In this document: one piece after another, positions 85 to 42,736 of the stretch
How the letters are laid out: every line of letters starts with the position of its first letter
How positions within the stretch are numbered: position 1 is the stretch's first letter
Source of the DNA: Eledone cirrhosa
Taxonomy: Eukaryota
Assembly (NCBI GenBank): GCA_964016885.1
Contig: CAXHJY010001356.1
Location: 1 to 50,867, forward strand
Length of the DNA: 50,867 nt
Reading direction: 5' to 3'
Translations under genes and position numbers: made by a program
Notes under the pieces: generated by a model
Told to the model about the DNA's origin: nothing
The model's database searches: none
What the model saw: the letters and a program-made list of their open reading frames with translations, nothing else

Positions 85-358
85 AGAAACGAACTCATAT
101 ACTAAGCATATCTGACGACCTTTCGATTACAGAATCAGGTTCGATCTATAATAGATCTTGCCTCGAGCTGATCGATAGTGAAACATATGTAATATGTTAT
201 TAAATATATGATGCATCACTGAATCCTTGGTCCTTGGACCTCTCAAAATTCGTTTGATATTTTAATTGGATTTTCACCGCGATACTGGATACCAACCCGG
301 AGTACACCTGGACTTCCACCAGGAAATCTTTCGTATCATTGAAATGTTTGTGCTTCTT
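85..358 (+). mobile_element. Putative non-autonomous Penelope-like/retrozyme-type element carrying the hammerhead
   Basis: Hammerhead followed by ~160 bp of non-coding tail that ends at an (AT)n tract (358-387). Minimal hammerheads are an established hallmark of Penelope-like element termini. Boundaries are inferred. Confidence 0.45.
105..198 (+). ncRNA. Type I hammerhead ribozyme (minimal stem III, long stem II)
   Basis: Stem I AGCATAT(105-111)/ATATGTT(192-198); core CTGACGA 112-118; stem II 119-179 is an imperfect hairpin (CT.TCGAT/ATCGA.AG, CAG/CTG, AGG/CCT, GATCTAT/ATAGATC); GAAA 180-183; palindromic stem III ACATATGT 183-190; cleavage triplet GTA 189-191. The stem II closing pair C119/T179 is a mismatch. 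Confidence 0.8.
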
Positions 359-2454
359 ATATATATATATATATATATATATATATAGGAGATGAATAAA
401 GTTGGGTTTAATACCAAATTCATACCAAATGCGGAGAAGTTGTATGTAGTTGTCTATTTTTTTTATATATTTATTTTAAGGACAGGCTGTGTTTGTGTAT
501 TTGTGTGCGTGTTTCTGTGTCTGTCTGTGTAGCAGTGTGTGTGTAAGTGTGTATAGAAGTATTTGATCAGGTGTTTGGTAACTACGTGTAGTGTTAGAAT
601 AAGTAGAATCCATGTGTTGAGTACGTAACGTCTGTATAATTTGGTGTAATATATGGTTGCCTGGAAAAGCAATGTTACTTGTGGTTCAATGAAAGAAAGG
701 AAAGACGGAAGAAGGACGGAAGGAAGAAAGAAGTAAAGAAAGAAAGAATGAAGGAAGGAAAGAAACTTATTCCTGATTAGTAGTTCTTTTGTATTACAAA
801 TCAAAACGAGAAATTAAGCTATAGAAAAGCATCTCACTTTCATTTCAGTGGCAGATGTGAATCTATCGCAATAACATCTGCCATTTGATGTGATGATGCT
901 AACAAGAAAATAGAGGGAAATACAGAGAAATAAATAAATAAATAAATAAATAAATAAAATTATCGTCTGCATCATTTGATAAATTACTATTGACTATGTA
1001 TATATATATATATATATATATATATATATATATATATATATATATATAATGACTATTGGTAAAGACACTCGCCACTAGTGTTCGGTAAAAAGTTATTCAG
1101 TCTAAAACTTCACCAACTCTCCATATTGTGTCGTTATCTCAAGACAAATAAAGATTTATTTTATTTTATTTTGTTCTTAATTTTGAGGGGAGTGTAGTCT
1201 ACTGGTGGCGTCGGCGGTGGTGGTGGTGGTGGTGGTGGTTGAGTGTAATCTAATGATGGTGGTGGAGTATAGTCTACTGATGGTGGTGGGGTGTGGAAAA
1301 CAAAATCTGGAAAATAAAAAATACGACAGAAAAAATTGTAAATGTATATAAATATAAAAAATATTGTATTGTGTAAAAAACTTTAAAATAACTCTAGTTT
1401 GATGTCGTACTTGTATGTTTGTCAGTAATTTAGTCGCCATATTGACTGTGACAGTGGCTGTCTGGCGGCACCTTCTCTTTAACATACAGATGACATATAC
1501 ACAGAGACATAAACACATGCTCTGATGTAAACACAGGCACACTCACATACACATACACACACATATATATATATATAGAGAGAGAGAGAGAGAGATATAG
1601 ATATAGATAGAGAAAGAGAGAGACGCATTATGATGTAAACACAAATACATAATGAACGGAACACACACAATCACACAATCACACACACACACAGAGTGAG
1701 ATACAGTAAGACACTGTTTCATGCTGTCATATGTTCTCACACCCTTGTGGCCATTCACACAGAGTTAGGACACAATAGAATTATAGGAAATACGAGAATA
1801 GAATAGATATGAAAAATCACAGCAGTGATATTTAGCTGGAGAGAGAGAGGGAGAGAGAGAGATGGGGGAGAGGGGGGGGGACATATTTGTATACATACAT
1901 ATATAGAGAGAGAGAAACAAATATATATACATCTATATATATAGAGAGAGAAAGACAATGTATATACGTATATATATAGAGAGAGAGAACTATATACGTA
2001 TATATAGAGAGAAAGACAAATATATATATATATACGTATATATAGAAAGAAAGACAAATCTATATACGTATATATAGAGAGAAAGATAAATATATATATA
2101 TATACATATAGAGAGAGATAAATATATATATATACATATATTTAAAGATAAATAAATATATATATATATATATATATATATATATATATATATATATATG
2201 GAGAGAGACATATATATATACATAGATATACAGAGAGAAATATGTATATTGTTACTATATATATATATAGAGAGAGAGGGGGAGAGAGGGAGTGACAGTT
2301 ATAGAGTGAGGTAGACAGAGACTCCATTGAAAATAAAGATGGATACTTTAACAAAACTAATGAATTCAATTGAAGAAATAAATCCGTAAGAAATAATTTT
2401 TAAGAAATAAATTCACTTCTGTCTTTTGTATTTATAATATGGTTGTCACAGCTA

Positions 2455-3545
2455 ATGATGGTATTGATGGTGGTGGTGGTGGTGGTGATGGTGGTGGTGC
2501 TAGTGGTAGTGGTGGTGGTGGTGGTGGTGGTGCTAGTGGTGGTGGTGGTGTTGTCTCTTGAATGGTACGTCATGTTGCTGTGGTGGTGGTAGTGGTGGTA
2601 GTGGTGGTAGTGATTGTCTCATATAAGGATGGTATTGATGGTTTTATTGGTGGTTCTTAATGATGTTGTGGCGGTGCTAGTGGTGGTAGGGGTTGTTGCT
2701 ATTGTGGTGGTGGTGCCAGTGGTTTTGGTTGTTAGTAGTCCTTGTTGTGGTGGTGGTTGTGATTGTTGTAGTGGTGGTGGTGCCAGTGGTTTTGGTTGTT
2801 GTGGTGGTAGTGTTAGTAGTCCTTGTTGTGGTTGTGATTGTTGTAGTGGTAATGGTGCCAGTGGTTTTGGTTGTTGTGGTGGTAGTGTTAGTAGTCCTTG
2901 TTGTGGTTGTGATTGTTGTAGTGGTAGTGGTGCCAGTGGTTTTGGTTGTTGTGGTGGTAGTGTTAGTAGTTCTTGTTGTGGTTGAGATTGTTGTAGTGGT
3001 AATGGTGCCAGTGGTTTTGGTTGTTGTGGTGGTAATGTTAGTAGTCCTTGGTGTGGTGGTGTTTGTGATTGTTGTAGTGGTAGTGGTGCCAGTGCTTTTT
3101 GGTTGTTGTGGTGGTAGTGTTAGTAGTCCTTGTTGTGGTGGTGTTTGTGATTGTTGTAGTGGTAGTGGTGCCAGTGGTTTTTGGTTGTTGTGGTGGTAAT
3201 GTTAGTAGTCCTTGGTGTGGTGGTGGTTGTGATTATTGTAGTGGTAGTGGTGCCAGTGGTTTTTGGTTGTTGTGGAGGTAGTGTTAGTAGTCCTTGTTGT
3301 GGTGGTGGTGGTGGTTGTGATTGTTGTAGTTATTGTGGTGGTAGTGGTTTTGGTAGTGGTTGTTGTTGTTGTTGTTGTTGTTGTGGTAGTGTTAGTAGTC
3401 GCTGTTGTGATGGTATTGGTGGTAGTGGTGATGGTAGTGGTGGTGGTAGTTGCTGTTGGGGTTGTGGCAGTTTTTGTTGTTGTGGTGATGATGATAGTGA
3501 TGATTATAATAGTTGTCATCGTTGTAGTTGGTGATGATGATGATA
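2455..3545. repeat. (GGT/GTT)n low-complexity block with higher-order ~75-82 bp units
   Basis: Recurring TGTTAGTAGTCCTTG...GATTGTTGTAGTGG...GGTGCCAGTGGTTTTGG units from ~2710 to 3330, with 1-nt indels among units. Confidence 0.9.
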
Positions 3546-3796
3546 CTGTTACTGACGTTGCTGAGAGAGGGGGGGTGAAAGCAAGATTATTTTTTCATTC
3601 CTTAGTTTTTAGGTTCTGTGTAAGAAGAGTTAAGTTAATTATAATCCAAGATTGTGTTTCTATGTTGAAAAAATCTAAAACTACCGACAACTACTAACTC
3701 CATTTACTTTTTCGAGGAATTCTACATTTTTTTCCTTCTGTCATCACAAAAATACTTTTGATACACACATGACAAAGTGTTTATACATATATATAC

Positions 3797-40981: not shown

Positions 40982-41035
40982 CACGTGGTTTCTATAGCAA
41001 CAGTGCTTCGTTCGGTCTCACTGACCAAAGTAAGT
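40982..41035 (+). promoter_or_regulatory. Adjacent E-box and X-box, followed by a splice-donor consensus
   Basis: CACGTG 40982-40987, GTTTCTATAGCAAC 40988-41001, AA|GTAAGT 41030-41035. Confidence 0.45.
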
Positions 41036-41328
41036 GGAGAGGGGAAGGTAATATTTCTGTAACACCAACTACTTCTCTCTCTCTCTATCTTCCTCTCTCG
41101 TTAAACAAGGGCGAAGGGGAAGGTAATAGTGTCTCTCCTTGTCGCCTGTGTTTAGATTTTGAATTATACAAACACACACACATATACACACACACACACA
41201 CACACACACACACACACACACACACACACACACACACACACATATATATATATATATATATATATATATATATATATATATATATACAATATATTAATAA
41301 ATGGAAACTATATTTATAAAACCATATT

Positions 41329-41394
41329 TATTTTATTATACATATTTCAAGGGCAACCAAGGCAAATTTTGGTGCGCTTTCATCAGATAAAATA
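41329..41394 (-). ncRNA. Minimal type I hammerhead ribozyme, intact core
   Basis: Minus strand reads TATTTTAT-CTGATGA-AAGCGCACCAA-AATTTGCC-TTGGTTGCCCTT-GAAA-TATGTA-TA-ATAAAATA. This gives an 8-bp stem I, stem II AAG/CTT + GCA/TGC + CCAA/TTGG, quasi-palindromic stem III ATATGTAT and cleavage triplet ATA. Confidence 0.8.
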
Positions 41395-42736
41395 CAAATT
41401 TGTTATAAATATTGACATATCCGCATAAAGACAACCTTAAAGTGTGTGTGTGTGTGTGTGTCTATGTATTTGTGTGGTGTATGTGTCTGTATATTGCCTG
41501 TGTAAGCAGGGGTGGTGGAACTGGGGGTGCCAGGGGGGGATACCCCCCTTAACTATATGTTTCTCCCCAAACTACCAAACACATCTATTTGTATGTCCTA
41601 CAATTTATGTACATGTTATGTAGAGACAGATGAGAGGGATAGTTATAGAGAGGGGGAGAGTTTGGTGGTAATTGATATAGAGAGGGGGGTTGGAAGAGAG
41701 TACCGTGTAGTAGATATAGATATGTGTGTATAGATGTGTGTGTATATATGTTTGTGTGTGTTTTTGTTATTATATTTTAAGTTTGTTTGCCTGTACGTCT
41801 CTTTGTGTGAATGTTTACTTAGTTAATCGAACGGGGAACAAAATATTTAACTATTTTGGGGGAAGAATTTACTTAGTTCTCCATTTTGTTTTTATTTTCT
41901 GTTTATTTGTTCCTAATTTCCCGCTTTTCTTTGTTCGGTGAAAATAGTCGAAACTAAACAAACTCGTGTAATAAAGTTTATTTTATTAAACTCGGCAGCA
42001 ACAGAACAAAGTCTGAAGTGGTCACTAAAACCTAACCTCTTCATCACACACAGATACACGTATTCATATACATATATACGTGTATCTGTGTCTGAATGTG
42101 TGTGTATTCATATACATATATACACACACATTCACATACATACTTACATACATACTTACATGCATAGATAAAAACACACATATACATACATACACATACG
42201 TACACACACATTCACATACATACATGCATACATACTTACATAGATAAAAACACACATATACATACATACACAGTTATACAAACACATATATAATAATATA
42301 TATATACATCTCTCTCTATATATATATAAATATGTATATACAGTATATATATATATATATATATATATATATATATATTTATATATATGTGTGTGTGTGT
42401 GTATGTGTGTGTATATATATATATGTGTGTGTGTATATATATGTATGTATATATATATATATATATGTGTGTGTGTGTGTGTATTTTCATATATATATAT
42501 ATATATATATATATATATATATACAGTTATAGTTATAGACAATTTATTTTCTTTCAAAGCGTCGAAGCTATAAATTTCGGAGTCACCCACATTTCCTCTA
42601 ATCCATCACCATCACCGTATCATCTCCATAACCACCACCACCATCACCAAACCGCCACCACCACCATCACCAAACCACCACCACCACCTTCATCTCCATA
42701 ACCACAACCACCACCACCACCAAGCCACCACCAAGC

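Follow-up and report, generated by a model that had tools for sequence, protein, structure and literature searches.

The 50,867-nucleotide contig CAXHJY010001356.1 of Eledone cirrhosa (assembly GCA_964016885.1), analyzed here over its full length and referred to as the window, is non-coding, microsatellite-rich animal DNA in which three solitary hammerhead ribozyme motifs, HH1 (105..198, plus strand), HH2 (9573..9610, minus strand), and HH3 (41329..41394, minus strand), lie apart from a two-copy element (19685..19842 and 29368..29499) that abuts (TA)n microsatellites. A tandem and low-complexity mask covers 64% of the window and leaves 110 unique segments amounting to 17,585 bp, and perfect (AT)n tracts account for 10–21% of the window, depending on the length cut-off. 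All sequence results refer to this one window, and the genome context is drawn from published papers. An earlier note on this DNA had proposed that open-reading-frame (ORF)-less, ribozyme-type elements dock here at (AT)n microsatellites, and had grouped the three motifs and the two-copy element as retrozymes or non-autonomous Penelope-like elements (PLEs).

HH1, HH2, and HH3 are real type I hammerhead folds at the coordinates where that note had placed hammerhead-type motifs, an identification borne out by both descriptors and folds. A strict type I descriptor (perfect core, helix I of at least 6 bp, helix II of at least 3 bp, and a palindromic helix III) recovered two motifs, HH1 (core at 112, plus strand) and HH3 (core at 41386, minus strand), against a mean of 0.001–0.003 in 1000 dinucleotide shuffles made from the unique segments. 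Allowing one core mismatch while retaining the palindromic helix III added HH2 (core at 9606, minus strand), giving three motifs against 0.063 expected, and the loosest descriptor returned four against 0.63 per shuffle, the fourth of these, at 2357, being probably a chance match. An independent scored scan gave about 15 to HH1 and HH3 (15.2 and 15.1, respectively) and 7.5 to HH2, while 241 shuffles yielded on average 0.00 matches at scores of at least 12 and 0.21 at scores of at least 7. The type I descriptor had 0 matches on reversed and complement-only versions of the window. The descriptors were tuned after the motifs had been seen, so the p-values lean toward optimism, that of HH2 in particular; descriptor support is strong for HH1 and HH3 and weaker, at a moderate level, for HH2. 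A wider scan, permitting two core edits and the U3-A8 variant, disclosed no credible new motif (two extra matches at 4.3–4.7, in the null range), and type II/III scans, all run without a helix III check, returned HH1 again, five matches in a 25-bp minisatellite, and one at 42013, which were rejected. Two plus-strand stretches, 41930–41965 and 45600–45640, resemble minimal hammerheads in an advanced state of decay, with a hairpin, CGAAAC, and a short helix I, and fall under every type I threshold.

In each of the three motifs, helices I and II flank the core and the open end lies in helix I, which measures 7, 4, and 8 bp in HH1, HH2, and HH3, respectively; the core, CUGANGA...GAAA...UH, is perfect in HH1 and HH3 and carries one change, U4 to G, in HH2. 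In HH1, helix I pairs 105–111 with 192–198 and is followed by the core CUGACGA (112–118), a 61-nt helix II hairpin (119–179) with a C.U mismatch at its base (10.1/11.1), GAAA (180–183), and the palindromic helix III ACAUAUGU (183–190), with cleavage predicted after A191 (GUA). The helix II hairpin folds at −18.8 kcal/mol, a value equalled by 0 of 200 shuffles. The tail of HH1 (192..357, plus strand) is non-coding and unique and ends at (TA)n; it is likely the 3′ part of a pseudo-long terminal repeat (pseudo-LTR), the limits of which need family copies, and beyond it stands a (TA)15 tract (358..387), 167 nt 3′ of the cleavage site. Sequence 5′ of HH1 recurs in the window, 1–36 at 41685–41720 (35 of 36 positions identical) and 47–89 at 889–929, and the HH1 element is bounded at about position 90 because this upstream sequence belongs to another repeat.

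HH2 is a minimal type I hammerhead with a U-rich flank, comprising the core CGGAAGA (9606–9600), a bulged A at 9599, a helix II of 5 bp closed by G10.1-C11.1, GAAA, and the palindrome AUAU, with predicted cleavage after C9577 (AUC). Its minimum free energy fold has the hammerhead topology, it is likely decayed, and the next (AT)n block in the 3′ direction (9392..9433) begins 144–156 nt from the cleavage site. HH3 combines the core CUGAUGA (41386–41380), a 31-nt helix II opened by A10.1-U11.1, GAAA, and a palindromic helix III, AUAUGUAU, that includes a G.U pair; cleavage is predicted after A41337 (AUA), 51 nt from an (AT)n block at 41242..41286. Helix III is palindromic in all three motifs and folds within one molecule in none (0.0 kcal/mol), and its self-dimer energy is −7.0 for HH1 and −2.2 for HH3.

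The nearest other hammerhead to any of these motifs is 9.5 kb away, and HH2 and HH3 are separated by 31.8 kb. Neither masked self-BLAST, from which repeats were taken because find_repeats was overwhelmed by (AT)n, nor nhmmer found a second copy or a tandem unit of any hammerhead element in the window, and the three show no detectable sequence similarity to one another. Since they are solitary, mutually unrelated, and without an ORF for a reverse transcriptase (RT) or GIY-YIG endonuclease, they are best read as 5′-truncated PLE pseudo-LTR remnants and not as tandem retrozymes; the absence of an RT and GIY-YIG ORF from the window is what would be expected of short truncations. We therefore favor, with a probability of about 0.7, the reading that HH1, HH2, and HH3 are solo 3′ pseudo-LTR remnants of three different PLE families, 5′-truncated or non-autonomous and probably TA-targeting. 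A palindromic helix III that pairs as a dimer is described as a PLE hallmark in two accounts (PMC6765202; PMC4209133), and comparison of the architecture with published PLE motifs makes a PLE origin well supported, with the ribozyme type as the one feature from which membership would be read. The Penelope-like assignment of the earlier note thus survives, by architecture, for the three hammerheads; the two-copy element stands outside the ribozyme group, and the note's retrozyme label, in the tandem sense, fails with each motif being single.

The two-copy element was examined separately. Copy 1 (19685..19842) starts with a left arm 2 bp from (TA)n and has (TA)6 on its right; copy 2 (29368..29499, possibly reaching 29533) has a left arm starting 1 bp from (TA)n. 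By masked self-BLAST, the left arms align on the same strand (19696–19757 with 29379–29440, 87% over 62 bp, E = 2e-14), whereas the inner modules align on opposite strands (19768–19813 with 29493–29447, 83% over 47 bp, E = 3e-5). For the inner module, the inverted alignment has a score of 63, where shuffles go no higher than 37, and the forward alignment reaches 33 because the module is quasi-palindromic. The right half of the element forms a long hairpin (z-scores of −3.2 to −3.3 in copy 1 and −1.6 to −2.1 in copy 2), and hairpin-loop inversion is therefore the simplest account of the inverted module. With the hairpin module inverted, direction differs between the copies, and the common 3′ direction previously assumed for them is lost. 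No third copy was found in the window by nhmmer. A 42-bp direct duplication (19850–19935) lies to the right of copy 1, past (TA)6.

The repeat at 19685 and 29368 and its contact with (TA)n thus stand as first described, but the two copies show no sign of being a ribozyme remnant. GAAAC occurs in copy 1 only, as the loop of a small minus-strand hairpin (GCCGT-CGAA-ACGGC) held within an imperfect palindrome (19758–19842) that contains no hammerhead core, and the plus strand of copy 2 has GAGAC. No CUGANGA within one mismatch is linked to it in either copy (one unlinked string occurs in copy 2), hammerhead descriptors have no match on either strand of either copy, and Rfam finds no ribozyme in each. 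A hammerhead was rejected because GAAA has no core 1 connected to it through a helix II; a decayed hammerhead would have the right spacing in the hairpin, at the cost of four core changes and no helix I; and readings as a hepatitis delta virus-like or hairpin ribozyme, judged by eye, lacked a P1 or a loop B partner. The element is instead a separate, hammerhead-free, non-autonomous repeat ending at (TA)n, and it is the best case of docking in the window: its left ends lie 1–2 bp from (TA)n, whereas none (0 of 13) of the other dispersed-repeat ends comes within 3 bp, the background being 0.7%. Its right ends, placed by eye, also meet TA runs, and TA on both sides speaks more for entry into a tract already present than for seeding. 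Two identities fit: a TA-targeting element resembling a miniature inverted-repeat transposable element (MITE), or a non-autonomous PLE without a hammerhead. A further repeat, at 26283–27062, is a unit of 581 bp whose termini carry a direct repeat of some 200 bp (26283–26484 and 26864–27062, 95% identical). It directly adjoins a (TA)n block whose last base is 26282 and has no hammerhead descriptor match; it looks like the partial tandem or pseudo-LTR of a non-autonomous PLE.

Several results weigh against a PLE origin with (TA)n targeting for HH1, HH2, and HH3. Pfam, applied to the 150 longest of 164 ORFs (at least 38 aa), returned nothing above cut-off, and the search for a Penelope-like RT and GIY-YIG that the earlier note had suggested produced no match among these 150 at E ≤ 0.05, so there is no PLE coding remnant; linker zinc-finger, RT, and GIY-YIG sequence are all absent from the window. 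Rfam reports no ribozyme at any of the three sites, hammerhead families being absent at E ≤ 10. Only some 7% of the structures in the HH1 monomer ensemble contain helix I, and the 4-nt palindrome of HH2 gives no stable dimer (+1.6). The bulge after A9 and the G10.1-C11.1 pair occur in HH2 and are absent from HH1 and HH3; published PLE variants without either are also found (PMC4209133). Because 51–167 nt separate the hammerheads from (AT)n, the ends of the elements are assumed and not seen. Against a background of unique positions with random strand, moreover, the combined Fisher p-value for tracts of at least 4, 5, 6, 8, and 10 units is 0.150, 0.098, 0.082, 0.048, and 0.034, respectively, and the first microsatellite met is AT at 42% of background positions, so that 3 of 3 has p ~0.07. 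The idea that the 3′ tails run into (AT)n is upheld for all three hammerheads (51–167 nt, 3 of 3 oriented with (AT)n on the 3′ side), whereas their enrichment over random unique positions, compared within the window for distance and orientation, is only borderline (p = 0.03–0.15).

These borderline values leave room for real PLE remnants whose nearness to (AT)n arose by chance or by later AT expansion in AT-rich tails, which is a genuine possibility at somewhat worse than even odds. Apart from the large share of the window that AT tracts occupy (10–21%), 19–33% of unique positions have such a tract within 167 nt downstream, and among 8 control CUGANGA strings that form no hammerhead, 4 have (AT)6+ no more than 170 nt downstream. 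The placement of the tract on the 3′ side in all three cases argues the other way: for HH2 and HH3, the two hammerheads with a 5′ side inside the window (that of HH1 is cut off by the window start), the first 5′ microsatellite is non-AT and the nearest 5′ AT tract is 0.9–2.2 kb away. A (TA)n bias has also been published for PLE clades. Targeting of (AT)n by these elements, as the earlier note proposed, is therefore plausible and agrees with the published preference of Neptune and Naiad elements (PMC8557442), yet three motifs in one window cannot prove it. Unlikely, though it overlaps with the favored explanation, is the view that the motifs are solo monomers of non-LTR retrozyme families, the tandem, circular-RNA-forming repeats of which would lie elsewhere in the genome, mobilized in trans by PLE proteins. 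Helix I of HH1 and HH3 (7–8 bp) is longer than in minimal PLE motifs, the unique stretches around the hammerheads (about 150–270 bp) fall inside the retrozyme size range of 170–400 nt, and solo monomers are stated to be common and retrozymes to derive from PLE pseudo-LTRs in a recent preprint (bioRxiv 10.64898/2026.07.22.740005). The lack of a tandem unit or second copy in the window, the 9.5 kb to the nearest other hammerhead, and the lack of a closed loop 1 for the canonical loop 1–loop 2 contact speak against such monomers.

It is extremely improbable that AT-rich DNA produced the motifs by chance. Besides the missing Rfam matches, folding of the motifs as wholes gives modest z-scores (−0.7 to −1.6), and the loose descriptor, at 0.63 matches per shuffle, picked up the likely false motif at 2357; however, the scores of 15 for HH1 and HH3, against 0.00 shuffle matches at 12 or above in 241 shuffles, refute this explanation for those two motifs. 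Very unlikely, too, is a single ribozyme class that would embrace all five elements and account for the microsatellite load by seeding (AT)n. The left ends of the two-copy element, 1–2 bp from (TA)n, would look the same in an element carrying its own TA tail, but that element has neither a hammerhead core nor an Rfam ribozyme match, and no sequence relation links the four kinds of element. The contribution to the high microsatellite load that the earlier note envisaged is not borne out either: the three blocks next to hammerheads amount to 117 of 11,498 AT-block bases (1%) and 3 of 67 AT loci, so a large (AT)n-seeding role for hammerhead elements is unsupported, although older, unrecognizable insertions may add to it.

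The remainder of the window holds other repeats and traces of coding sequence. A short interspersed nuclear element (SINE)-like tail, which we take to be octopus-like, is present in three copies that are 94–96% identical by self-BLAST (5161–5265, 23078–23171, and 29626–29727, the third also given from 29583), with seemingly more diverged relatives near 25440–25510 and 31250–31470. A second SINE-like repeat forms adjacent diverged copies at 9884–10066 and 10141–10343 (69% identity) with (TATTT)n between them. Tandem arrays include a 40-bp unit repeated 13 times at 100% identity (5329–5850) and the 25-bp minisatellite mentioned above (10620–11539), which has about 37 units with higher-order variants. 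Broken reading frames at 49780–50060 (plus strand) resemble the C-terminal RT region of an R4/Dong-type long interspersed nuclear element (LINE), with no match in protein and Atlas searches, and a frameshifted stretch at 4867–5114 (minus strand) resembles the 3′ end of an RTE-type LINE ORF, with no match in a protein search. ARAGORN predicted 0 transfer RNA genes in the window, and Rfam gave 550 matches across it, the 150 listed being microRNA models driven by microsatellites.

If HH1, HH2, and HH3 are indeed PLE remnants, the GIY-YIG endonuclease and RT of an autonomous PLE probably inserted each element at or near (TA)n. In an active element, to judge from published PLE motifs, two hammerheads of a tandem transcript would pair through the palindromic helix III, and the RNA would then be cut; solitary copies without a nearby partner are probably inert, and HH2 has additionally lost U4. 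That truncated PLEs leave solo hammerheads and that some clades prefer (TA)n is already known; novelty may lie in the host and in the shape, with helix II arms of 61 and 31 nt. None of the three motifs is picked up by Rfam, and Rfam-based hammerhead counts may therefore be far too low. More tentatively, and with the balance tilting against it, the motifs might represent an undescribed class of dimer-type hammerheads (helix II of 31–61 nt) belonging to several non-autonomous families that depend on Penelope and dock at (TA)n. Extrapolated from three in 51 kb, such a class could number some 100,000 copies and constitute major unannotated cephalopod repeat DNA missed by Rfam, beside hammerhead-free TA-docking partners such as those at 19685/29368 and 26283–27062. 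Should the long helix II prove conserved across copies, the natural hammerhead fold would be broader than known, and there would be a handle for classing octopus repeats now called unknown or SINE. A genome-wide version of the analysis would be a direct test of PLE targeting versus seeding of (TA)n in a very microsatellite-rich genome.

Among known systems, TA-flanked MITE-like elements and hammerhead-free non-autonomous PLEs resemble the two-copy element in its length of about 130–160 bp, non-coding character, strong self-complementarity, and TA runs on both sides. It differs in that its right end carries no inverted repeat of the left terminus and that its inner module is inverted between the copies, two copies being too few to fix its class. 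Non-LTR retrozymes, defined as tandem arrays in which every unit contains a hammerhead (Cervera and de la Pena, 2020; PMC7229834), share with HH1, HH2, and HH3 a short, ORF-less, low-GC make-up, a type I hammerhead, and a likely dependence on PLE proteins; they differ in that the present loci have no tandem, one hammerhead each, and no canonical loop 1–loop 2 geometry. The derivation of retrozymes from PLE pseudo-LTRs, with many solo monomers, is reported in the preprint (Li et al., 2026; bioRxiv 10.64898/2026.07.22.740005). Comparable as well are the Neptune and Naiad PLEs, for which (TA)n is the preferred Naiad target and the same bias is cited for Neptune (Craig et al., 2021; PMC8557442). 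The likeness lies in 5′-truncated non-coding ends beside (TA)n and in inverted and partial-tandem structures, the difference in a window that has no RT, linker zinc finger, or GIY-YIG by which to assign a clade. Neptune-type PLEs carry hammerheads, Naiads are without canonical ones, and cephalopod Naiads are remnants only (PMC8557442).

The Octopus vulgaris annotation records 31 PLE families as recently active and points to an earlier burst of PLEs (PMC13282606), and a shrimp paper states that Penelope favors AT-rich targets (PMC3124438). The literature covered on hammerheads in octopus and cephalopods, which excludes most subscription papers, describes no such families and offers just one figure, 235 Rfam hammerhead_1 matches in the giant squid (PMC6962438). 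Minimal type I hammerheads in metazoan PLE pseudo-LTRs were described by Cervera and de la Pena (2014; PMC4209133). In these minimal PLE hammerheads, helix I is short, a bulged base precedes helix II, G10.1-C11.1 is present, and helix III is palindromic; most are single motifs from truncated copies, and monomers are inactive and dimers weak, a palindromic dimer model with which a review agrees (PMC6765202). HH1, HH2, and HH3 share with these motifs the type I topology, the CUGANGA/GAAA/UH core, a palindromic helix III suited to dimers, U- or AU-rich flanks, and solitary dispersed copies. They depart from them in the length of helix II, at 61 nt in HH1 and 31 nt in HH3 against a longest readable 23 nt among 56 published rows, in the C.U at 10.1/11.1 of HH1 and the G at position 4 of HH2, and in having no link to a PLE ORF here. 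Measured against the metazoan PLE consensus, HH2 agrees at every core position but U4 and has a flank rich in U, a short helix I, the bulged H, the G10.1-C11.1 pair, the palindrome, and NUH. HH3 has the same layout as the row of the shrimp M. japonicus (unbulged, with A10.1-U11.1, H17=A, and helix III palindromic); HH3, and HH1 save for its mismatch, follow the unbulged H17=A variant of M. japonicus and Saccoglossus (PMC4209133).

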